Source: Octopus vulgaris
Taxonomy: Eukaryota
NCBI GenBank assembly: GCA_951406725.2
Contig: OX597814.1
Span: 192,696,001 to 192,760,000 of the forward strand
Reading direction: 5' to 3'
DNA length: 64,000 nt
This document shows, piece by piece, positions 5,033 to 63,868 of this stretch. Under the pieces are notes generated by a model that searched no databases, was not told where the DNA came from, and saw only the letters and a list, made by a program, of their open reading frames with translations. Positions within the stretch are counted from its first letter, which is position 1; every line of letters starts with the position of its first letter. The translations under genes were made by a program, and so were the position numbers.

Positions 5033-6120
5033 GGGAGGGGGGATTCTCACCATTGCTTGACAACTGATTTATATCCCCCATTACTTGGTGGTTCGGCAAA
5101 ATGGAGACCGATAAAGGAAGCACCAGGCTCAACAAAAGATAAATACTGGGGTTGATTCATTTGACTAAAAATTCTTCAAGGTGGTGCCCCAGCATGGCCA
5201 CAGTCTAATGACCAAAACAAGTAGAAAGAGAAAAGATATACACTGAAGACATCCCACCTACAAAGACAAACTGCTTCAATATAAAAAAACTATGTAAACA
5301 AACGAATGTGAACACAAATCCAGAAAGCTTATTATGACTGTGTTGGTTGCTTTATAAACAACCAGCAACCAGTCACACAAGTTAGTAAAAGAAGATAACA
5401 CCTATCAGTAAATTAGCACTATTAAAGCTCTCTGACCCATCTTCTCACAAACACAAATAAATAAATAAGAAAAGGCACAGCTGTGTGGTAAGAAGTTTGC
5501 TTCTCAGCTACATGGTTCCAGGTTCAGTTTCATTGCGTGGCACCTTGGGAAAGTGTCTTCCAAACTAAAACTAAAGCTGATATTCTTCTTGCCTCCTAGT
5601 TTTAATTTATTCTGCATTTTATACAACAAAGGAAATCATGACTAGTTTTCAATAATTACAAGATTTTCAGTTCTAAATAAGCAATTAGCATTTCAACCCT
5701 TTTGTAATTATATTTCTGATGAATTACATTGCTTCTGATTCAATTAGTTTTGAAAATAACAAAGAATTAAATAAAATAACTTTGCCATTATTAACTTAGT
5801 ATTTGGGACATAAATTAGCAAGGGACTTTAATGAAAGGCTTTAATTCGGATCACTTTACAACAAGAAGTTTGCATTACAGAAGCAGGAGCAGTCCCAGAA
5901 GGGCTAGTATCAAATGGGTTGAAAGGTATTTTTCAAGCAAGTTTAGGAGTGGCTGTGTGGTAAGTAGCTTGCTTACCAACCACATGGTTCTGGGTTCAGT
6001 TACACTGCGTGGCACCTTGGGCAAATGTCTTCTACTATAGCCTCGGGCTGACCAAAGCCTTGTGAGTGGATTTGGTAGGCGGAAACTGAAAGAAGCCCGT
6101 CGTATATATATATATATATA

Positions 6121-33489: not shown

Positions 33490-36400
33490 TTATGCAAATG
33501 ATCTCGTGATCTGCAACACAAACTTCAAAAAACCAGCCAGCCTCCTAATCACTTATCAGTCTGGTGAGCACATAAGCCAGATTGACAATGAGGATATGCG
33601 ATAGATGGATGCTTAAAAATGCAAAGTCTTTCCTGGATGAAGAGTGTACAACCCTACATAGGTTACTAGTTAGTGACTTCAGAATTAGAGCTAGAAAGAC
33701 TCGGAGATATAAACCAATCTGGAAAAGAAGACTATGGAAGCTCAAAAACCCAGCAAACAGACAAAACTTTAGAGGTAACTAATGGAAGCTTCTGACGAAA
33801 GAGAGGGAGAGTTGGGGGGCATGAAGCTTAGAGGACAATTGGAAGTTCTTGTGGGACAATCTACTGAGGGCTACGGATGAAATCTGTGGTTGGTGCAGAG
33901 TCCCATTTAGACCAAGGGTGACATGCTGGTGAAGCAAGTAGGTTGACAGTGCTATAAAAGACTGGAAAAACAGTAGAAGGAGAGAATTATATCAGGTAGC
34001 TAAAAGGGCAGCTAGGTGTCAGGTATACATAGCAAAATGTGTAGCTGAAGGTATTGCAAATGTTCTACAGCATAAGGATCACAGGCATGAGGTGTTCAGG
34101 ATTACAAAGCAGTGTATGGAAGAAAACAGCGAAGAGGTAGGTGAGAAATGTATGCAAATAGATAATGGTATGCTTGCACTTAGTGACTCAGTGAAGATGC
34201 ATGGAAGTGTCACTATGAAAGGTTACTAAATGTGGAAAATGAATGGGAGAAGGAGAGTCTACCAAATATTGAACCAATTGAGGGACCAGCCATCAGAGCT
34301 GATAGTAGCATAATCATCATCATCATTGCTAGCATGGGTTGGACAATTTTGACTGAAGGTTGGCGAACCAGATGGCAGCACCAGGCTCCAATCTTGATTT
34401 GGCAGAGTTTCTACCGCTGGATGCCCTTCCTAACGCAAACCACTCCGAGAGTGTAGTGGGTGCTTTTTACATGCCACCGGCACAGGGGCCAGTCAAGCGG
34501 TACTGGCAATGACCTCACTTGAATCCTTTTACACATGCCACCAGCACAGGTGCTAGTAAGGCGACGTTGGTAATGATCACGCTCGAATGGTGCCCTTTTA
34601 CGTGCCACTGGCACGGAAGCCAGTTGGCTGCTCTGGCAACGATCACACTCGGATGGTGCTCTTGGCACCCTACTAGCACGGGCACAAGTGCCAGTAAGGC
34701 GACGCTGGTATAAGACAATTAAGGACATGAAGACAGAAAGCTCCTGGGCCATCATGAATCACTGCCAAAAGGATTAAAATTCCTGGTGGTGTAGCATACA
34801 GCTTAGTCACCCGTGTAGTTACTCAGGTTATTCAGGAAGGCACCATCCCCAACAACTGGTGTAGTAGTATTATAGTTAGCTGCTACAAAAGTAAAGGTGA
34901 TTCCTAAGGTAGAAACAATAACAGAGGTATTAAATTGCTAGACCAAGTCATGGAAGTTACTGAGAGGGTTTTAGCTCAATTGGTTAGAAATAGAATTAAA
35001 CTAGATGAGATGTAGTTTGGTTTTGTGCCTGGGGAGAGTACCACAGATGCCATCTTCCTAGTGAGACAGCTGCAGTTCTCAGCCAACTCTTATTCATTAT
35101 AGTCTTCCAGGCCATAACTGAGGAATTCAAAACTGGGTGCTTGTGGGAACTGCTATATGCTAATGACCTTGCTCTTATTGCAGAATCTTTAGAAGAACTG
35201 GAGAAGAAATTCCAGGTATGGAAACAAAACCTTTCGGAAGGTATTTCACAAATTGTGTGTAAGCTTTAATAAATGTGCAAGCACTTTCAGTTCTCAGGGT
35301 TATCAAGCATGTGTTATGGCTATATATCATCATCATCATCATCATCATCGTTTAGCGTCCGCTTTCCATGCTAGCATGGGTTGGACGGTACAACTGGGGT
35401 CTGGGAAGTCAGAAGGCTGCACCAATTAAAAAATTGAAGATAAAATCTATGTTAGATATTATCAGGTAGCTAGCATGCAATCAACCGGTTAAGGTAAATT
35501 AATCAATTTATAAATATTCATATAAAAATATAAATAGATATATAAAAACACTAATTAGTGTCTCCTTCTAGCAAGCAGTTGGACTCTTGTTCGTATGTGT
35601 TTACTCTCCTGATATATATTTTTATATATCTATTTATAAATTTATATATACAATCAAAGGGCCTTAGAATCAACCTAGCCAAAACCAAAGTCCTAATAAG
35701 TAGGAAGGTAGACCAATCACAAACGCCTTCAGGTCGATCTGTAGAAAAGGCGTAGATAGAAACTCTATAAGATGCACTAAATGTAAGCTATGGACACATA
35801 AGAGATGTAGTCATGTCAAAGGAAGACTAACTAGGAAAATAGTTTTTATCTGTGGCAGATGCTCAGGAGCAATAAACTCTGAAAACATGCAGAGACCAAC
35901 TTCTACCACGTTCCAGGGAGAAAAACTAGAAGTAGTTGATAGCTTCCGCTACCTAGGTGACCAAGTCAGTAGTGGGGGCGGGTGTGCTGAAAGTGTAACT
36001 GCTAGAGTAAGAATAGCCTGGGCAAAGTTTAGAGAGCTCTTATCCCTGCTGGTGACAAAAGGCCTCTCGCTCAAAGTAAAAGGCAGACTGTATGAGGCAT
36101 ATGTACGTACAGCCATGCTACATGGTAGTGAAACATGGGCTGTGACTGCTGAGGATTTGCATAAGCTCACAAGAAATGAAGCTAGTATGCTCCGTTGGAT
36201 GTGTAATGTCAGTGTTCATAATCGACAGAGTGTAAGTACCTTGAGACAAAAGTTGGACCTAAGAAGCATCGGTTGTTGTGTGCAAGAGAGATGATTGTGC
36301 TGGTATGGTCATGTGGCGAGAATGGATGAAGATAGGTGTGTGAAAAAGTGCCACACCCTGGCAGTTGAGGGGACCTGTGGAAGAGGTAGACCCAGGAAAA

Positions 36401-37049
36401 CCTGGGACGAGGTGGTGAAGCACGACCTTCAAACTTTAGGTCTCACCAAGGAAATGACTAGAGACCGAGACCTATGGAAGTATGCTGTGCGTGAGAAGAC
36501 CCGGCAAGACCAGTGAGAACAGTCAAAATCAAAATCAAAATCAAATCAAATCAAATCAGATATCAGAAAGCAGAACCAAAATTGAGGTCGATCAACATCA
36601 GTGGAAATTGCAGCCGTGGTTAAGCGAACCATCCAATCGTGGTCATTGCCAGCACTGCCCCGTCTGGCCTCCATGCCGGTGGCACGTAAAAGCACCATCC
36701 GTTCATGTCCGTTGCCAGCCTCACCTGGCCCCGTACCGGTGGCACGTAAAAGCACCATCCGTTCGTGTCCGTTGCCAGCCTTGCCTGGCCCCCGTGCCGG
36801 TGGCACGTAAAAGCACCATCCGTTCGTGGCCGTTTGCCAGCCCTGTCTGGCACCTGTGCGGGTGGCACGTAAAAAGCACCCACTACACTCACGGAGTGGT
36901 TGGCGTTAGGAAGGGCATCCAGCCGTAGAAACACTGCCAGATCTGACTGGGCCTGATGAAGCCTTCCGGCTTCACAGACCCCAGTTGAACCGTCCAACCC
37001 ATGCTAGCATGGAAAACGGACGCTAAATGATGATGATGATGATGATGAT
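33490..37049 (+). mobile_element. RTE-clade LINE, degenerate (APE, RT, C-terminus, 3' UTR, (GAT)n tail), with nested insertions at about 34311-34708 and 35231-35650
   Basis: CNTNFKK...HRLLVSDFRI (APE); WELLYANDL (RT); FRYLGDQVSSGGGC...AWAKFREL...MLHGSETW...WYGHVARM...GRGRPRKTWDEVVKHDL; continues into the family C 3' UTR. Confidence 0.9.
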
Positions 37050-37099
37050 ATATATATATATAAATTTATAAATACATATATACATACATATATATATAT

Positions 37100-38458
37100 G
37101 CAAGAATTTTTTTTGTGCATGGTGCAAAAGATTGTGCAGCAGCTGACCTGGCTACATCAAGTGCAAACATGGAACCTTGCCCACCACTGTGCAAGACCAC
37201 CACAATCAACAGATACAGGATGGCTTCCCCTAACACAAGCACAGTCATCATGCCAATATTTTTACTAAATATTGGAGGCCTGTTGCATCACAACAATAAA
37301 AGCAAAATTTTTTTTACCTGAGTAACCTTGCTGCATGCAATCAAGCCCTATGCATAGCACTTGTGGAAACTCATCTTAGGCCTGATATAGAGGATGCAGA
37401 AGTACACTTACCAAAATATACCATACTGCGAATGGATAGAAGGGAAAGGAGCTATGGTGGAGTTGCTGTATACATCCGTGAGGACCTCACACCCCAAGTC
37501 CTACTGTCATACTCAAATTCAGTGTGTGACACTCAAATTGTATACATAACACAGTATAGTCATATGTAATACATATCATCCATTGGATGCTCCAAACTAC
37601 ATGGGAAAGTTTGAAGATTGCCTCACAAGAATAAAAGAAACCCTCATGAAACTGGAACATCAAGTGAGTGTATTTCTTGGTGATTTCAACTTCCCCAGTA
37701 TCAAATGGCCTGAAGGCCTCATGCTGTCAGGAATGACTCATTGCAAACAAGTACAGGTGGCGTCCCTGCTCAACCTCACCAATGCCCTATTCATGGAGCA
37801 AATTGTGCTCCAACCTACCAGGGCGAACAACATATTGGATTCCTGCTTCACAAACAATATGGACATCGTTCATAATGTGAAAGTGCTGCTGACATTAGTT
37901 TCAGATCACAACATAATAGAGCTGTCTATGAATGGATCAAAAGTAGCCAGAGATATACAGCCTAAAGGAAGCACCCAAAATCTCTCCAATCTGAACTTCT
38001 ACAAAGCAAACTGGAAATCGATCCAAAAAGAGATCCTCAGACAGGACTGGCTGAAATGTCTCTCCACACCATTAGCATGAAATTAGGATATTTCATGTCT
38101 GTGGTGCAAACCATATGCCAGAAATATGTCCTGGAGCACAAGGCCAACACAAAAAGGAACAAGACTCCAAGGGAGAGGAAGATCCTCATGAGATGATGGA
38201 TGAAGGTTGCAAATGGCTTCAACCAAAATCTCAAAAGTAGCACCCAAAATTGAATGAAAAACTTAGAAGGTACACTGGCCTAGGGCAATTACAATTCCAG
38301 AAACTAAATCAGTGCAGGACCTGGGTATCAGCATGAGTGATGCTACCTCTTTCCAAGTGCGTATTACCAAGATGAGGAGAAAGTGCAGATAGTTGGCTGG
38401 CTGGATCCTGAGAATCTTCAGAAACAGAGAGAAGGAAACCATGATGGGCCTCTGGAGG
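37100..38458 (+). mobile_element. CR1/L2-group LINE relic (APE endonuclease joined by internal deletion to post-RT region)
   Basis: ETHL...RMDRRERSYGGVAVYIRE; LGDFNFPSIKW...QIVLQPTRANNILD...SDHNII; then QDLGISMS...GWILRIF. Confidence 0.85.
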
Positions 38459-38460
38459 AT

Positions 38461-38531
<71 letters not shown>

Positions 38532-38535
38532 AAAT

Positions 38536-38561
<26 letters not shown>

Positions 38562-38569
<8 letters not shown>

Positions 38570-38660
38570 ATGTATGTATATGACTACGAAGATGACTCAT
38601 GAGTCCAGCTTTACTGAGGCAGGGTCTTGCACAGACATTGCATAAAACGAGACAGATGAG
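38562..38660 (-). mobile_element. Opposite-strand RTE-type zinc-finger 3' fragment
   Basis: Minus strand CNVCARPCLSKAGLMSHLRSH running into (ATAC)n. Confidence 0.55.
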
Positions 38661-38945
38661 TGACAACCTGGCCACTGGTGGTGGCGTAACACACCATACT
38701 AATCATATCTGTCGGGCATGTGGAAGAGAGTGTAATTCGGCAGGAGGACTTAAACGACATGCAAAGGTACATGAAGCCCAGTTACAACTACAGTCGGCTA
38801 TTACCAGTAAAGGTTTTAGTTGCCAATTTTGTACAAGACATTGTAGATCTTTAGCTGGGCTAAAAAGTCACATTCGATCACAGCACCAGTAACAGTTAAG
38901 CTTCGTGCAATGGCCGTACTCGATAATGAGGGGGCAGCCATAATG
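38660..38945 (+). mobile_element. 3' end of a second RTE-type LINE with two C-terminal C2H2-like fingers
   Basis: CRACGRECNSAGGLKRHAKVH and CQFCTRHCRSLAGLKSHIRSQH, then a short 3' UTR (ctcgataatgagg) and (ATGT)n tail. Confidence 0.65.
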
Positions 38946-43650: not shown

Positions 43651-44539
43651 TTTCTACCCCCACAAGTTGTTTGCATTCAGGTGAATATGACATTACAGGT
43701 TGAATTGTTTTCTCAACACACAACTCTACATTGATTATAAATTGTCAACAGGTAAACCCTTCTTCTAATTGATAAATATCTTATCAAATTCACTCAAAGG
43801 TAACCTTCAATACAATTGTTTCATAAATGATTAAGTGAAGTGTATTAGTAGCAGAAAAATATTAATCTAAAATATATTTAATGCACTCACCTTTTACAAA
43901 CGTCAACAGCCAATGTTGATAAAGTTCACAGAGTACAAATAGGTCTACCCAATATATTTATTACCTCATCTAAAACAGCTACGACTGAGTACATTCAAAT
44001 GGTCTAGATGATCAATGCAATACAAATACAAATATCAAGTGTTGTTTGTTGGAATAATATATTGATATTTTATGTACCAACTGCTCATACAGAGATTTCT
44101 AAAAATATAAGTTGTTGACCTCGAATGGAAAGTTTAGAGAACACCTAACATGATGCATAACAGGTTTGGTTTTTGTTATTATATTTTATAAATTCAAATT
44201 CTATTGGGTTCAACTTTGCGTTTTATTGTTTCGGAGTTTGTAAAATAAATATCAGTAAAATACTTTGGGCTGATTCAGTCGACTTAACATACCACTTGTT
44301 TTTTTTTTAATTGGCTTATTGCTTGGTGAAAATAAATCAATATCAGCTGTAGAGTTACTGTTAAAAGCTAGAGATTAGAAGTGATTGCTTTTTATACTCA
44401 TACAATTTAGGAAAATACAATAGGCTATAAACTCTCTGAAGAGATAATGGCATAATATGTCATGATAACATTGGTTTATGGAAGTTGTTTATTTTCCTGG
44501 TTGCTTTCATAACTCACGGTCAGTAATGTTATATAAGTG

Positions 44540-44845
44540 GGGGCAAATAGCCGAGTGGTTAGAGCAGTGGACTCGCAGTCGAGGGATTACGGGTTCGAAT
44601 CTCAGACCAGGCGATGTGTGTGTTTATGTGAAAAACACCTAGGCTCCACACAGCCCCGGCAGAGGTAATGGTGAACTTCTGCTGACTCATTCGTCTCAAC
44701 TTTCTCTCACTTTTTCCCTCTGCATCTAGCAGCTCACCTGCGACAGACCGGCGTTCCATCCAGGTGGGGAAGCTATACGTCAATGAAACCAGGAAACCGG
44801 CCCTTATGAGCCAGGCATGACTCAAGAAGGAACAAACAACAACAA
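44540..44845 (+). mobile_element. SINE family D (tRNA head; V-domain-like cctgcgacagaccggcgttccatccagg); relatives at about 11823-12300, 62260-62560, 18340-18590
   Basis: A box tagccgagtggtt, B box ggttcgaatct, (AAC)n tail. Confidence 0.75.
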
Positions 44846-45499
44846 TGTTATATAATCCTCCTCCTCCTCACCACCACAACCATCATCATCATCATCATTT
44901 TCTGTGTACTTTCTATGCTGGCATGGATTGGATAGGTCACCATGAGCCAAGTCAGTTCTTATTCACAGTTACTGCTCTCCTGGTTGGACTGAAAAATTTC
45001 TTCTTTCACCTATTTTTTCATTTTGGCTTGGTTTCTATCATTGGATATGCCTTTCCCAACAACTACTACTTCATAAAGTGCCCTGAGTACATTTTATTGA
45101 GACATTGATGCTAAAGAGGTTGTCTTATCCTTGGCAACACATCACTTTAGGGTCTTCTCAAACTTATATTTTTCCTGCTCATTTGGCAACCACTTTACTG
45201 CACAGATTGTGTGCAATTAATCATGGCACCTGCACTAGTGAGGTTGCTTTGTATCCTGCAAGACAAAAGAAGAAATAAGGGTAGTATATTTCCATAGGCT
45301 GAAACAGCTGTAAGTGATTTTAATGATTCTAACAATTTATATTAATGTTTTTTTTAATAATCAACCTTTTGGGGTTGATAAAACAAGTACCAGTTGAACA
45401 CTGGGGTTGATGCAATCAGCTTAATCCCATCCCTAAAAAGGCTGGCTTTGCACCAAAATTTGAAACCAATAAAAAGTAATATTTATCTAAAAGCAATTT

Positions 45500-45930
45500 A
45501 CTCTCTTTTCTCTTTTACTTGTTTCAGTCATTTGACTGTGGCCATGCTGCAGCACTGCCTTTAATCGAGCAAATCGACACCGGGACTTATTCTTTGTTAG
45601 CCCAGTACTTATTCTATCGGTCTCTTTTGCCGAACCGCTAAGTGACAGGGACATAAACACACCAGCATCGGTTGTCAAGCAATGCTAGGGGGACAAACAC
45701 AGACACACAAACATACACGCACACATATATATACATATATATGACAGGCTTCTTTCAGTTTCCGTCTACCAAATCCACTCACAAGGCTTTGGTCGGCCCG
45801 AGGCTATAGTAGAAGACACTTGCCCAAGGTGCCACGCAGTGGGACTGAACCTGGAACCATGTGGTTGGTAAACAAGCTACTTACCACACAGCCTCTCCTG
45901 CGCCGGCTACTTACCACACAGCCACTCCGA
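45500..45930 (-). mobile_element. SINE family A
   Basis: Full length; head-to-head with the 46218 copy. Confidence 0.85.
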
Positions 45931-46217
45931 CTGTAGAGTTGTTTCAACAATAATTAACTCAATATATTAATAAAGTTGTTTTTTTTTTTTTTCCACTCTT
46001 CTCATTTGAGAATTTACATTAGAATGAGTAACATACTTGATTGAATAAAGGTGTGGCCTATGAAAAAATTAAGAAACCTATTGTTGATTGATTGACATCA
46101 ATATAAACCTGCTGCAACATGTTCAAACAGGACTATAATTGATTCTCTGTAGTTTTTAAAGCATTCTGCTTGGCTTCATTAAAATATTCATGTTATTTAT
46201 TTAATGTAAGACGTTTT

Positions 46218-46630
46218 GAGTGGCTGTGTGGTAAGTAGCTTGCTTACCAACCACATGGTTCCGGGTTCATTCCCACTGTGTGGCACCTTGGGCAAGTGTC
46301 TTCTACTATAGCCTCAGGTCGACCAAAGCCTTGTGAGTGGATTTGGTATACAGAAACTGAGAGAAGCCCGTCGTATATATGAATATATATATGTATGCGT
46401 GTGTATATGTTTGTGTGTCTGTGGTTGTTCCCCCCAACATCGCTTGACAACTGATACTGGTGTGTTTATGTCCCTGTAACTTAGCGGTTTGGCAAAAAAG
46501 AGACTGATAAAATAAGTACTAGGCTTCCAAAGAATAAGTCCCGGGGTCGATTTGCTTGACTAAAGGCGGTGCTCCAGCATGGCCACAGTCAAATGACTGA
46601 AACAAGTAAAAGAGAAAGAAAGAAAGAGTA
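46218..46630 (+). mobile_element. SINE family A
   Basis: Full length. Confidence 0.85.
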
Positions 46631-46943
46631 TGTATATGTATAAGTATGTGTGTGTATTTATATTTATAACTTAATCTTATGTACTTTCTAAAAATCTCTG
46701 ACGAAGCCTAGAGAAACACCCAAGTACCTCAATTTCATCTACTAATTACTTCAGTCTACTGGAGGGATAAAGGTAGAATGAGGTATTTTTACCTCTTGGC
46801 TGAAACAGCTGTAAGATATTATCCCAATTTCTATTCCTGTATGTTAATTATCCTTTTAGTAAATAAATAAATAAATAAATTGACATAATATAATGTCTAA
46901 ACGTTGATGAATACCACCTATTGATCTCCTCATTTTCTTATTG

Positions 46944-46945
<2 letters not shown>
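46630..46945 (+). mobile_element. Penelope-like LTR-type fragment carrying the 46691 hammerhead
   Basis: Its 3' part (accacctattgatc...cattttcttattgc) matches 6121-6155 and, inverted, 9760-9860; it lies between microsatellites. Confidence 0.55.
46691..46820 (+). ncRNA. Type I hammerhead ribozyme motif with about 97-nt helix II
   Basis: atct-CTGACGA-agcc...ggct-GAAAC-agct-GTA-agat. Helix II extends through agag/ctct and aagtacctca/tgaggtattt; helix III is palindromic (ACAGCTGT). Predicted cleavage after 46813. Confidence 0.82.
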
Positions 46946-46990
<45 letters not shown>

Positions 46991-46993
<3 letters not shown>

Positions 46994-47665
46994 TCATCAT
47001 CATCATCGTTTAACGTCCGTTCTCCATGCTAGCATGGGTTGGACGGTTCGACCGGGGTTCTGGGCCAGAAGGCTGCACCAGGCTCCAGTCTAATCTGGCA
47101 ATGTTTCTACAGCTGGATGCCCTTCCTAACGCCAACCACTCCGTGAGTGTAGTGGGTGCTTTTTACATGCCACCTGCACAGGTGCCAGGCGAGGCTGGCA
47201 ACGGCCACGGTCAGATTGGTGTATTTTATGTGCCACCGGCACGGAAGCCAGTCGAGGCGGTGCTGGCATCGGCCACGAGTCGGATAATGCTTTTTACGTA
47301 CCACCAGACCAGGGATCCTGGCTGGTTCAATTCGATTTCGATTTCGCTTGCCCCAACATGTCTTCACAAGCAAAGGGGGTTGGCATGGGTGCCTGTCGTA
47401 CGGTCGCATTGGAGTATTTTACGTGCCACGGCCACGAGTCGGATAGTGCTTTTTACGTACCACCAGACCAGGGATCCTGGCTGGTTCAATTCGATTTCGA
47501 TTTCGCTTGCCCCAACATGTCTTCACAAGCAAAGGGGGTTGGCATGGGTGCCTGTCGTACGGTCGCATTGGAGTATTTTACGTGCCACGGCCACGAGTCG
47601 GATAGTGCTTTTTACGTACCACCAGGCCAGGGATCCTGGCTGGTTCAATTCGGTTTCGATTTCGA
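46991..47665 (-). mobile_element. Family C copy with 2.5 x 159-bp tandem expansion
   Basis: Units start at 47270, 47429 and 47588. Confidence 0.8.
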
Positions 47666-47918
47666 TATATATATATATATATATATAAATTAAATTCGAG
47701 ATAAAAGCACTATTAGGTAAATCAAACAGTGAAAAACATAAACCAAAACATAAAAATAAAAATAATTAATATGATATAAAAAATAAATAAAATATAAATT
47801 TTACAAATTTAAATTATTTAAATTTAGATTTAAAATTAAAATTATTAATTTATATTTATAAAATTTTATTTATTTATTTTTTATTAAATATATATAACTA
47901 TCAAAAAGTATTAAAAAG

Positions 47919-47959
<41 letters not shown>

Positions 47960-47976
47960 CATACATATACATACAC

Positions 47977-48048
47977 CGCAGAGTGGCGCAGTGGGAGCAT
48001 GCTGGGCCCATAACCCAGGAGTCCGTAGATCGGAACTACGCTCTGCTA
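47977..48048 (+). tRNA. Initiator tRNA-Met (CAT)-like gene, probably a pseudogene, copy 1
   Basis: cGCAGAGTGGCGCAGTGGGAGCATGCTGGGCCCATAACCCAGGAGTCCGTAGATCGGAACTACGCTCTGCTA is 72 nt with a CAT anticodon, GGG/CCC anticodon stem and the initiator-type A54 T-loop. It has C1 instead of A1, a D-stem mismatch and G58. Confidence 0.85.
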
Positions 48049-48204
48049 TTTGCATGAATCTTTTAAACGGCGGTGCATCAGCATGGCCGCAGCTCTGAGC
48101 TGAAACTAGAAAAAAAATACATACATATACATACATACAAACATACATACATTCATATATACATACACATACACACACATATACATACATACAAACATAC
48201 ATGT

Positions 48205-48735
48205 AAGCTATACCATAGTCATACATATACTACTTGGCGGTGTGAGTTACACACTCCTACATGTTATATTTATATATTTAGTCGTTGACTATTTTCTCTT
48301 TTCCACTAGGCCGCTGGTAGCGATAAATTTCTATTGAATTTTTTTGCTACCCTAAATTGACTAATTGATAATTTTCTGAATAATTCTGAGATTGAATCGG
48401 CAGTATATTTACTGCTGATAAGTTTGGCGCGAATACGTCAGTCTTGAAAATTTTAAGACAGATATTTCGGAGGCATCGATACAGACGCCTCGTGTATATT
48501 TGTCTCTCCCAGGTTTTTTACTGATGAAGTGTAACCTATGGTAGATTAGCTTAATTTAATTTAATTAAGCTAATTTAATCATTAATGACACAGAAACGAT
48601 GCATCGTCTAAAAGATGAATTAGGGTAAATGTTTTTAAATTTTCACCTAATTTCTGAATTACTACTACTTGGCGGTGTGAGTTATGGCTGCTCTTTCTGG
48701 TGGACGAATGGCCTGTTAAGGTCACTCCTAAATTG

Positions 48736-48736
<1 letters not shown>
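48205..48736 (+). mobile_element. About 530-bp hammerhead-bearing element with a 22-nt internal direct repeat
   Basis: tactacttggcggtgtgagtta occurs at 48228-48249 and 48663-48684 (435 nt apart); several hairpins; ends in (TA)n. Confidence 0.55.
48513..48616 (+). ncRNA. Type I hammerhead ribozyme motif with long helix II
   Basis: tttta-CTGATGA-a-gtgt...(hairpin agattagcttaat/attaagctaattt)...acac-a-GAAAC-gatgcatc-GTC-taaaa. Core is intact, helix III is palindromic (ACGATGCATCGT), helix I is tttta/taaaa. Predicted cleavage after 48608. Confidence 0.8.
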
Positions 48737-48774
<38 letters not shown>

Positions 48775-48791
48775 CATACATATACATACAC

Positions 48792-48863
48792 CGCAGAGTG
48801 GCGCAGTGGGAGCATGCTGGGCCCATAACCCAGGGGTCCGTAGATCGGAACTACGCTCTGCTA
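48792..48863 (+). tRNA. Initiator tRNA-Met (CAT)-like gene, probably a pseudogene, copy 2
   Basis: Identical to copy 1 except one variable-loop base (caggggtcc vs caggagtcc); 815 bp downstream. Confidence 0.85.
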
Positions 48864-49342
48864 TTTGCATGAATCTTTTAAACGGCGGTGCATCAGCATG
48901 GCCGCAGCTCTGAGCTGAAACTAGAAAAAAAATACATACATATACATACATACAAACATACATACATGCATATATACATACACATACACACACATATACA
49001 TACATACAAACATACATGTATATATACATACATATACACACACACACACATGATGGACTCTCCTGTCAAAGACGATGTATTGAGTGTTCAGCCATTACTG
49101 AACCACCTGCCCAAATGATTTGTTTATATTGATCAAATGTGTGTACTGTACATAATCTCACTCCCTCCATCAAATCGACGTTACCTGAACCGGTGCACAG
49201 TGTACCACACATCAAAATGTCTTACTATTTTTTCCTTAATAAAACACACTAAACTCATGTTCAGTTCTGTTTCATCATAACTTGCTTTCATTTTCTTTTC
49301 TTTCTTCATGCATATTTTCTTTCCTCTTCATTCCTCCATTAT

Positions 49343-49466
<124 letters not shown>

Positions 49467-49485
49467 TAATTGACGGGAAAAGTTA

Positions 49486-49873
49486 TTATTTCTTTACTAC
49501 CCACAAGGGGCTAAACACAGAGAGGACAAACAAGGACAGACAGATGGAGTAAGTCGATTATATCGACCCCAGTGCGTAACTGGTACTTATTTAATCGACC
49601 CTGAAAGGATGAAAGGCAAAGTCAACCTTGGCAGAATTTGAACTCAGAACGTAGTGGCAGACAAAATACCTATTTCTTTATTGCCCACAGGGGGCTAAAT
49701 ACAGAGGGGACAAACAAGGACAGACAAACAGATTAAGTCGATTACATCGACCCCAGTGTGTAACTGGTACTTAATTTATCGACCCCGAAAGGATGAAAGT
49801 CAAAGTTGACCTCGGCGGAATTGAACTCAGAACGTAACGGCAGACGAAATACAGCTACGCATTTCGCCCGGCG
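49486..49873 (-). mobile_element. SINE family B tandem dimer inserted as one unit
   Basis: Two 3' halves in tandem, flanked by one TSD aattgacgg(g)aaaagtta. Confidence 0.8.
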
Positions 49874-50989
49874 AAATTGACGGAAAAGTTACAGAAGTAT
49901 TTCAAGAGTTGAGAATTTTGTGCATGGCACTTTAGACATCCTCTGCAGACCATGTGATATGTAACATACAGAATTTAGCAACAAAACTGCAATAGATTGC
50001 TGTCAGCCCAAGTACTGCTTGAGGCTGTGCCTTTTTAGCTAATGAAACGATCTGCTTCAATTAATTTATCACAGCTAAGTCATCATTTGTTTCAGCATAG
50101 ATCAATTTGCTACAGTACAGTCATGCTGATTATAAGAATTCACAAAAATCAGGCAACATCATCATCATCATCCTCATCATCGTTTAACGTCCGCTTTCCA
50201 TGCTAGCATGGGTTGGATGATTTGACTGAGGACTGGAGAACCAGATGGCTGCACCAGGCTCCAATCTTGATATGGCAGAGTTTCTACAGCTTGGCAGCAA
50301 ATTTATATAATGATCTGGAAATTGCTATTCATACATCATCATCATCACCCTCCTCCTCCTCAATTAAAGTCTGTTTTCCATGCTGGCATGGGTTGGACAG
50401 CTTGACTGGATGTGGCGAGGCCAGGGACCACACCAAGTCCCATAGTCTATTTTTGGCTTGGTTTCTACCGCTGGATGCTCTTGCTAATGCCAACTACTTT
50501 ACAGAGTGTACTGAGAACTTTTTACAAGAGAGAGTCATCAGTGCTTTTTACATGGTACCAACACCAATGCTTTGGCAAGTTCATTTACACACAATTCCAT
50601 CCAGATATCGAGCTAAACACTAGCACAATATAATGGCTGTAGTTGAGAAAAGTTGGTAAGCCTATGTTTAATGACAAGCATCAAATCATTAACTTTGTTG
50701 AGCAGAGTTATGGGCATGATGTTTTATATCATGTCATCTCTCCGTCATCTTAGGACAGCTGCTATGTAGTGGTTGATGGTTGACCCTGTCAAAAGCTTTA
50801 GCCTTATTGAAATTGACTCATGCCTCACCAAAGCTAAATCTATTGACAGCCTGCTTCAATGTCATAGATAAACCTGCCGATGACCACATAGGTTTGTGTA
50901 TCACTACATTACTAACAACAAGTTTCAAAATCATTAACTCTGTATTGAGCAGAGTTATGGGTGAGAAGATTTTTTTATCATTCTCTCTT

Positions 50990-62767: not shown

Positions 62768-63302
62768 CTAGCAGTATCGCCCGGCGTTGCTCGGGTTTGT
62801 AAGGGAAATAACTATATAAGCATTTTTAGAGAGTTATAGCAAAAAAATGCATTAAAAATGGAATAAAAAATGATGATGATTTTTTTTTTTAAATCGTTGA
62901 CTCAGTGTCTTCAAGCCATGAAGTCGTTGTTCTAAAAGAACGCTGGTCTCCTTGACAACGCTTTACGACGTTGATTTCTTTACACTCCCTTCCCCACAGC
63001 TTCACGAGGGAGGGAAGAAGGGGAGAAGCAAACACAGGTGCAGGTGTTTGAGCGTGGACGCCAACTCCGCCGCCATCGACACACGAAAATTATGCATTAA
63101 AATGGAATAAAAAATTATGTTAAATTATTTTTAAAATCGTAGACTCATCGTAGACGCGCGCTAATACTCAGAAGGGCTCGATATTAATCACGACTATAAG
63201 ATACCCGAATTTGGTTAAACTGCACCGCAAAATGTGGGAGTAGTTAGGAATCTAAATCGAAGGGGACAGACACTCACACAACTAGAGTTTTATATATATA
63301 GA
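62768..63302 (-). mobile_element. Non-autonomous Helitron (inverted)
   Basis: Reverse-complement termini of the same family. Confidence 0.8.
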
Positions 63303-63353
63303 TATATATATATATATATGTAAAATATAATCTCGTTCAGAGATTTATTATTG

Positions 63354-63868
63354 ATATATATATAAAACTGTAGTTGTGTGAGTGTCTGTCCCCTTCGATT
63401 TAGATTCTTAACTCCTCCCACATTTTGCGGTGCAGTTTAACCATATTCGGGTATCTTATAGTCGTGATTCATATCAAGCCCGTCTGGCTATTAGCGCGCG
63501 TCTACGATGAGTCTACGATTTTAAAAATAATTTAACATAATTTTTTATTCCATTTTAATGCATAATTTTTCGTGTGTCGATGGCGGCGGAGTTGGCGTCC
63601 ACGCTCAAACACCTGCACCTGTGTTTGCTTCTCCCCTTCTTCCCTCCCTCGTGAAGCTGTGGGGAAGGGAGTGTAAAGAAATCAACGTCGTAATGCGTTG
63701 TCAAGGAGACCAGCGTTCTTTTAGAACAACGACTTCATGGCTTGAAGACACCAAAACAGAAATGGCTAAGAAAGCCCGAATTGGCATCTATAAGGGAAGT
63801 AACTCTCTAAAAATGCTTATATAGTTATTTCCCTTACAAATCCGAGCAACGCCGGGCGATACTGCTAG
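63354..63868 (+). mobile_element. Non-autonomous Helitron
   Basis: Near-identical to the reverse complement of 62768-63302; ends in CTAG. Confidence 0.8.

Follow-up and report, generated by a model that had tools for sequence, protein, structure and literature searches.

A hammerhead motif with a long helix II in a solo copy of an abundant ~473-bp repeat, a probable Penelope-derived retrozyme-like element

A type I hammerhead motif in repeat-rich DNA

The window, that is, the whole stretch of 64,000 nucleotides that was analysed, is animal-like and repeat-rich, with 30-46% G+C, many SINE-like families and microsatellites, and a longest frame of at most 224 aa. Its set of SINEs may point to an octopus host; a literature search with a SINE motif returned no paper. 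A type I hammerhead can be read from the letters of its plus strand (Table 1): CUGAUGA (48521-48527), A48528, helix II from G48529 to C48591, A48592 and GAAAC (48593-48597) are followed by a 12-nt palindrome (48596-48607), which overlaps the GUC triplet at 48606-48608. Helix I pairs 48513-48520 with 48609-48616 and comprises five contiguous Watson-Crick pairs, or eight pairs if two G·U are counted. A sequence-only reading of this DNA had reported CUGAUGA, GAAAC and GUC, a helix I of 5-8 bp, a helix II of about 65 nt and a 12-nt palindrome as helix III; all of this was confirmed, helix II measuring 63 nt, or 65 nt once the A on either side is counted.

On the two strands, a descriptor scan detected one strict hammerhead core in the window, namely the motif at 48513-48616, and none in any of the 40 block-wise dinucleotide shuffles of the window that served as the chance control. 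Loose cores numbered three in the window, against a mean of 0.075 and a maximum of one in the shuffles. The motif at 48513-48616 is real, and its occurrence is far above chance. A loose candidate at 5716-5847 (+), located in AT-rich DNA, has a non-palindromic helix III of 2 bp and was set aside as a probable chance match. The Rfam search that had been proposed as a check returned no match at the gathering score in the whole window, and none of the 31 matches at E up to 10 within 44500-50000 came from a hammerhead family.

The earlier assignment to the Penelope type is supported, as the type I core fits the consensus for hammerheads of Penelope-like elements (PLEs), CUGANGAH-G...C-GAAAN-palindrome-NUH (PMC4209133, Fig S3). 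The motif has the type I order, CUGANGA/GAAA/NUH, an extra base between positions 9 and 10.1, and a palindromic 15.2-16.2 plus loop 3. It shares with the published PLE hammerheads CUGANGA with an extra base, G10.1-C11.1, the optional N11, GAAA, the palindromic helix III and NUH; a short U-rich helix I and a predicted action as dimers are further points of likeness in the available text of that paper. The hammerheads described there lie beside a PLE frame, whereas no such frame accompanies the motif at 48513-48616 among the 49 of 92 frames scanned.

Table 1. Positions of the features discussed, in window coordinates
Position	Strand	Feature	Basis
45297..45314	+	3' half of a third motif, 18/18 identical to 46798-46815; no core in 300 nt upstream	sequence comparison
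46694..46817	+	second hammerhead motif of like build and other sequence: 97-nt helix II, 8-nt palindrome, GUA, 4-bp helix I	scan, fold
47923..48205	+	left copy of 283-bp direct repeat: (TA)n, tRNA-Met-like gene 47977-48048, SINE-like tail, (CATA)n	2 mismatches in 283
48204..48227	-	spacer with inverted 15-nt piece of helix II 5' arm (48536-48553, 3-nt gap)	shuffle test
48228..48261	+	redundant 5' end, made of 22 nt that equal 48663-48684, a gap of 36 nt and the unit's 3' end leading into the joint	sequence comparison
48262..48733	+	one repeat unit, period 472-476 (~473), 34% G+C, strong plus-strand fold	joints, depth, circular fold
48302..48315	+	5' side of predicted long-range stem with 48671-48704, bracketing the unit	fold; 4/4 listed paired-position differences keep the pair
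48513..48520	+	helix I, 5' strand	sequence; 8 pairs with 48609-48616
48521..48528	+	core CUGAUGA and extra A (N10)	sequence; no listed difference in 4 runs
48529..48591	+	helix II, 63 nt: G10.1-C11.1, 4-bp base, 5x5 internal loop, AU-rich 19-pair arm	fold z -6.4; family differences
48592..48597	+	extra A (N11) and core GAAAC	sequence; A48592 altered in at most 3.8% of depth, three large runs
48596..48607	+	12-nt palindrome (helix III) that would, by prediction, join two ribozymes through base pairing	hairpin versus duplex energy; two-copy folds
48606..48608	+	GUC triplet with the cut predicted after 48608; some family members have GUA	sequence; C48608A frequencies
48609..48616	+	helix I, 3' strand	descriptor scan, folds
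48738..49020	+	right copy of 283-bp direct repeat, tRNA-Met-like gene 48792-48863; the unit's 3' end enters its (TA)n	alignment

The ~473-bp repeat and its insertion at the locus

The stretch 48200-48740 is present in 20 of the 24 runs listed, from seven studies and under three organism labels; none of the runs listed with it is marked as RNA. Contigs placed on it numbered 908, 851 and 554 in three large runs and 10 in a fourth (the four runs being X1, X2, X11 and X12). Their depth starts at about 48262 and continues to the end of the stretch at 48740, with zero depth at 48200-48256. Head-to-tail joints between the unit's 3' end and its start gave periods of 472 (two contigs, X11), 473 (one, X11) and 476 (one, X2). 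Among the loose ends listed, three precede 48262 (X11, X12 and X1); all of them are the unit's own 3' end, and one runs on into microsatellite-like DNA. A further 141 loose ends lie beyond this listing, and some of these may lead into a PLE reading frame. Run X1 is RNA by guess only and, being represented by contigs, does not bear on transcription, strand or RNA ends. Four of its contigs, with lengths of 187, 152, 143 and 111 nt, share terminal overlaps of 29-30 nt and form a closed loop of 593 - 4x30 = 473 nt. Because of the joints of 472-476, the loose ends and the closed 473-nt loop, the repeat is described as a ~473-bp unit joined head to tail; solo copies with at least 22 nt of terminal redundancy would give the joints and the loop as well, which are therefore no proof of arrays or circles.

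Summed depth on the unit was ~1e4 to 7e5 in the large runs, versus ~5-60 for single contigs, which suggests thousands of copies as an order of magnitude only, since depth is not copy number. No frame of at least 70 aa lies wholly within the unit at 48262-48733. Folded as a circle, the unit reaches -129.2 kcal/mol with 64% of its positions paired, and the z score is -7.3 for the plus strand and -4.1 for the minus strand (60 shuffles each). A search of the window found no second copy beyond 48228-48737. In metagenome contigs, the two-part pattern occurred in no stretch; 26 stretches matched a short pattern, and none of the 26 matched the family outside it, so they were attributed to chance. The sequence-only reading mentioned neither the unit nor how abundant it is, and neither its head-to-tail joint nor the flanking duplication of 283 bp.

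The element copy at the locus extends from 48228 to about 48737. It is a solo ~1.07-mer with one ribozyme and (TA)n at its 3' end. The score of the inverted piece in the spacer to its left was reached by 26 of 2000 shuffled spacers and by none of 121 other tiles of the window. Tails, inverted 5' pieces and (TA)n targets have been described in print for PLE insertions.

The direct repeats on either side of the copy differ at 2 of 283 positions, irregular (CATA)n microsatellite included, and are likely a target-site duplication, judging by the alignment. A somewhat unlikely alternative is that they arose independently of the insertion, by later local duplication or as an assembly artefact. The length speaks for this alternative: target duplications measure 126 bp for R9 and a median of 900 bp for Dualen LINEs, so that 283 bp is unusually long and is matched in print, as far as the available text of PMC9977147 goes, by Dualen LINEs alone. 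Microsatellite-rich DNA is prone to error, and none of the contigs of the four runs covers 48200-48256, a hole that proves nothing and that we did not accept as an empty allele either. Against a later origin stand the position of the copies, which abut the insertion (the right one directly, the left one over a 22-nt spacer), and their near identity, which extends to the irregular microsatellite.

The two tRNA-Met (CAT) genes within these repeats, both on the plus strand, differ by one base and carry atypical bases, and the tail after each resembles the 3' end of a common SINE. We take both genes to be initiator-like. We discounted read-through out of the tRNA-like gene into the element because of a T4 run 11-14 nt beyond that gene.

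Variation between copies, the long helix II and the palindromic helix III

Forty single-letter differences between copies were listed. Twenty-eight of them, which reach 5% of depth in one or more of the large runs, were tested; the other 12, which reached 5% only in X1 and include A48592C, were dropped. In the plus-strand fold, 12 of the 28 fall in loops, 12 keep a pair and 4 break one, versus 11.3 breaks expected by random placement (P 0.0006), and in the ribozyme-constrained fold 5 of the 28 break pairs versus 10.5 expected (P 0.01); as the differences are one-sided, unphased and common to subfamilies, these P values are optimistic and overstate independence. In the minus-strand fold, 12 of the 28 differences break pairs versus 10.3 expected. 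Because the differences spare the predicted plus-strand fold and not the minus-strand fold, the strand asymmetry of pair-keeping changes points to an RNA stage on the strand of the ribozyme.

No difference is listed in the four runs for CUGAUGA, GAAAC or the palindrome, a pattern that lacks significance by itself (none of the 28 differences falls in these 26 positions, P ~0.19). The sole frequent change among the core and helix III positions is C48608A, which turns GUC into GUA at 1%, 32% and 59% of depth in X2, X11 and X12, respectively; the GUA triplet occurs in published PLE hammerhead motifs (PMC4209133). Conservation across copies had been named earlier as a check on the family, and the outcome favours it, with 4 plus-strand pair breaks against 11.3 and a P of ~0.19 for the core alone.

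In helix I, an insertion at 12% and 17% of depth (X11 and X12) would make the U·G pair a C-G, as read by hand. Four contig records of X1 (3, 4, 6 and 7; 48404-48660) represent a subfamily diverged by ~10% from the copy at the locus, with GUA, C as N11 and a possibly compensated helix I, whose phase comes from contig overlaps only. The pairing of these helix I changes rests on a 30-nt contig overlap and on similar depths in X11 (889 and 970). We did not count the compensated helix I of this minor subfamily (a change at 48516 with loss of A at 48610) as covariation, since in X2 and X12 the loss occurs with no accompanying change.

Helix II is predicted to fold into 4 bp, a 5x5 loop, 19 pairs including one bulge, and a 6-nt terminal loop, at -22.5 kcal/mol (z -6.4), and none of 200 shuffles equals it. 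The frequent family differences within it fall in the internal loop or retain the pair. Helix II is 63 nt here and 97 nt in the second motif at 46694-46817, versus at most 23 nt in the 56 rows of Fig S3 of PMC4209133 (counted by eye). On the reading of the letters, a helix II nearly three times the longest among these 56 published motifs is a new feature. The search descriptor given in the available text of that paper allows a helix II of 3-7 bp plus a 3-10-nt loop, at most 24 nt, and the motif at 48513-48616 falls outside it. The accessible part of PMC13725137 terms a helix II of 6-8 bp long.

The sequence-only reading had pointed out an A-A mismatch at the first helix II position that may reduce activity. 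The A·A is present, but it is no decay mutation of the copy at 48513-48616: a mere 1.1%, 2.2% and 3.8% of depth in the three large runs reads C at A48592, and U is not among the changes listed there. Because A48592 varies so rarely, A·A is the family consensus. It fits a PLE core with an extra N10 and an extra N11, which the descriptor of PMC4209133, as available, permits around G10.1-C11.1.

The 12-nt palindrome was predicted to form a hairpin of -1.0 kcal/mol or a duplex of -18.7 kcal/mol. In single chains, the pairing probability of helix III was 0.01-0.12 in every context (5 + 4 contexts). The ribozyme-constrained fold of the monomer lies 3.7-6.2 kcal/mol above the best fold, which hides the cut site under a competing local hairpin at 48604-48618. 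Two copies of 48513-48616 were predicted to adopt a classical double hammerhead at -65.9 kcal/mol, which is 13.5 kcal/mol better than two monomers. A 12-bp intermolecular helix III, with each copy keeping its own helix II, formed in all four two-copy contexts; the complete double hammerhead formed only in the tightest of the four, and helix I was lost in the three with longer flanks. Helix I is also out-competed in longer contexts, with a pairing probability of at most 0.05 in five of five, which counts against the cleavage account proposed below. All of these folds model secondary structure only, with neither tertiary contacts nor protein.

Because the hairpin is marginal while the duplex forms in every two-copy fold, action as a dimer via the 12-nt palindrome, with a predicted cut after 48608, is likelier than action as a monomer, although slow cleavage by monomers would be compatible with these folds. 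This weakens the earlier statement that helix III is long enough to fold as a monomer. Monomer cleavage, in which a 4-bp helix III with a 4-nt loop would be stabilised in the tertiary fold and each solo copy would cut its own transcript, seems to us rather unlikely, and it fits either view of the element. The helix III hairpin occupies about half of the ensemble if folded alone, the constrained fold is a mere few kcal/mol above the best one (see above), and a fungal PLE hammerhead whose helix III is large is reported in the available text of PMC4209133 to self-cleave as a monomer. These points are opposed by the low probability of helix III in context and by the energy of the duplex relative to the hairpin. 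Moreover, a palindrome that lacks any listed difference over its whole 12 nt exceeds the needs of a hairpin, whose 4 loop bases would be free to vary, although this alone is not significant. Palindromes of 10 nt are already in print for Aedes PLE hammerheads (PMC4209133), and 10 nt is the most found among the 56 motifs of Fig S3 (counted by eye), versus 12 nt here.

Identity of the element and relation to known systems

On balance, we favour reading the locus as a retrozyme-like element, non-autonomous and derived from Penelope: a single dispersed copy of the abundant ~473-bp repeat, in which no protein is recognisable and whose hammerhead would, by prediction, act as a dimer and cut after 48608. 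Pfam identified no PLE protein (reverse transcriptase or GIY-YIG) in the 49 of 92 window frames of at least 90 aa that were scanned; four of these 49 had matches, to a PHD finger, an APE-type endonuclease, C2H2 fingers and, weakly, SMP. We hypothesize that tandem source copies would be transcribed on the plus strand, and that two ribozymes would join their palindromes into one 12-bp helix III, each folding its own long helix II. The dimer would cut after GUC or GUA and free unit-length RNA. A reverse transcriptase and a GIY-YIG endonuclease of Penelope type, provided in trans, might copy this RNA, as a circle or an uncut multimer, at AT-rich microsatellites. Copying beyond the joint would yield a little over one unit, its 5' end scrambled, as in the copy at 48228-48737, and staggered nicks 283 bp apart would duplicate the target. 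A solo copy such as this one, with one ribozyme, would release no unit-length RNA alone.

The locus might instead carry a pseudo-LTR or the 3' end of a 5'-truncated autonomous Penelope-like element, in which case the hammerhead would be an ordinary pLTR ribozyme and the joints would derive from a partial-tandem PLE structure. The core is of PLE type, the tail, the inversion and the (TA)n target are PLE traits, most PLE insertions described in the accessible literature are 5'-truncated with a single terminal repeat, and (TA)n-preferring PLEs are recorded for Octopus species in the available text of PMC8557442. We nevertheless regard a truncated PLE as unlikely: among the loose ends listed, the three that mark the 5' boundary all belong to the unit's 3' end and not to coding sequence, depth near the 5' end (48314-48351) equals that of much of the 3' half, and the predicted long-range stem links both ends of the unit, with differences that keep its pairing. 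Still less probable to us is a motif that is catalytically dead or nearly so, owing to the A·A, a missing loop I-loop II contact and the hairpin over the cut site, in a repeat that spreads without self-cleavage, either through PLE proteins that bind its folded RNA or as a DNA satellite. The hairpin predicted over GUC is consistent with this. As far as the available texts go, metazoan PLE hammerheads are slow and of low activity (PMC4209133), 8 of 9 Xenopus retrozyme dimers failed to cleave in vitro and 1 of 9 cleaved, and the PAc hammerhead needed protein for cleavage, which was dispensable for insertion in vitro (PMC11167929). However, the sole frequent change in the core is GUC to GUA, and the bias of pair-keeping changes toward the plus strand speaks for an RNA stage and against spread as DNA only. 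Because of the slow published PLE hammerheads, the inactive Xenopus dimers and the dispensable PAc cleavage, we treat the predicted ribozyme of the ~473-bp family as no more than a candidate for activity.

The retrozyme-like reading draws on a comparison with metazoan non-LTR retrozymes as described in the available texts of PMC7229834 and of Li, Clavereau and Pollet 2026 (10.64898/2026.07.22.740005). Both are short repeats in which each unit carries a single type I hammerhead, G+C is low and the RNA pairs strongly with itself. Retrozymes further have a target duplication of more than 4 bp where there is one, comparable with the probable 283-bp one here; solo monomers beside tandems, comparable with a solo copy in a family whose joints may come from tandems; and expression as linear and circular RNA of unit length. 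A PLE origin and mobilisation have been proposed for them. The repeat studied here shows a type I hammerhead in a short protein-free unit with G+C below 50% (34%), 64% paired positions and a z of -7.3. By contrast, the core at 48521-48597 is of PLE type versus canonical in the retrozymes of PMC7229834, and the 473-nt unit exceeds the 170-400-nt RNAs of that paper, while lying within the range of published retrozyme units (51-972 bp, with a monomer share of 0 to 1, in the material available). An active retrozyme in the sense of Li et al. has two or more units in a row, each with a whole hammerhead. Two consecutive units were not found at the locus, whose solo ~1.07-mer corresponds to the monomer class in the accessible text of Li et al. 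Because the two-unit arrangement is lacking, we file the copy at 48228-48737 as a solo member of a retrozyme-like family; by analogy, its membership among retrozymes is likely.

Several other systems resemble the element in part. The Dwi_HHR2 family of D. willistoni is a PLE-associated hammerhead family that also occurs as up to 85 tandem 450-bp units (PMC4209133, Fig S5A); it differs by an apparently short helix II and an insect host. Hydra-1_Obim and the Naiad PLEs of Octopus (Craig et al. 2021, PMC8557442) are cephalopod elements that target (TA)n, as does the insertion here, and are candidate helpers by analogy if the host is an octopus. According to the available text, Hydra-1_Obim has a type I hammerhead, which differs from that at 48513-48616 in its 22-nt helix II and in sequence, and Naiad_Ovul carries the label of a half core whose halves lie far apart. 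Two short motifs of the window had no match in the accessible supplement of that paper, where line breaks could conceal one. With 235 Rfam hammerhead-1 hits reported for the giant squid in the text available (PMC6962438), and with Hydra-1_Obim, cephalopod hammerheads as such are already known. The main texts of PMC7229834 and of Li et al., as available, contain no match for cephalopods, the latter having sampled 31 vertebrates, 3 insects and 1 coral. No description of the ~473-bp family was found in the accessible parts of the literature searched, including PMC6765202 and PMC6155905; Repbase and Dfam were outside this search, and the repeat may be catalogued there.

The second hammerhead motif, at 46694-46817 (Table 1), has a helix II with a z of -3.4 that begins with A-U and then G-C. 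This base matches the M. japonicus row of PMC4209133. The motif shows no sequence match to the 48262-48733 family and formed a double hammerhead in neither of two two-copy folds; AT-rich DNA and microsatellites come after it. Since the motifs at 46694-46817 and 48513-48616 have no sequence in common, a long helix II occurs in at least two families of this genome. The partial motif at 45297-45314 is probably a decayed copy of the one at 46694-46817, as its sequence identity indicates.

A broader reading, which we offer as speculative and improbable, is that these motifs represent an unseen class of long-armed Penelope hammerheads in an animal lineage, with two unrelated families within 2 kb that Rfam and published descriptors miss. 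The palindrome would then be a dimer-initiation site joining the transcripts of separate solo copies, and the same machinery would leave ~280-bp target duplications and copy host tRNA-like genes. If so, thousands of dispersed single ribozymes could cut each other in trans without tandem arrays. Lunse et al. reportedly described small PLE hammerhead variants. If the retrozyme-like reading is right, an abundant family of this kind with a Penelope-type core would exemplify, directly and in an invertebrate, the PLE origin that has been proposed for retrozymes of animals and that Li et al. (10.64898/2026.07.22.740005), in the text available, tested by phylogeny in Xenopus only. Descriptor and Rfam scans with short helix II limits may overlook whole hammerhead families, which bears on the reported absence of hammerheads in Naiad elements. 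With the 12-nt palindrome and the natural GUC and GUA forms, the monomer-or-dimer question for Penelope hammerheads is testable with one short construct. As the kind of system is already known, the gain is moderate.

Elsewhere in the window, a PHD finger (35704-36294), an APE-type endonuclease (37550-38080) and C2H2 fingers (38596-38892) lie on one strand (+) within 35704-38892 and are likely remnants of a broken LINE. About three tandem units of ~150 bp in a SINE-like element at 47270-47660 account for the longest frames of the window (47014-47688 and 47130-47693), the first of which had no match in Pfam. A long inverted repeat of ~850 bp at 62905-63751, with arms 62905-63136/63520-63751 at 90% and 63086-63300/63355-63569 at 96% identity, resembles a MITE or an inverted pair of retroelements.
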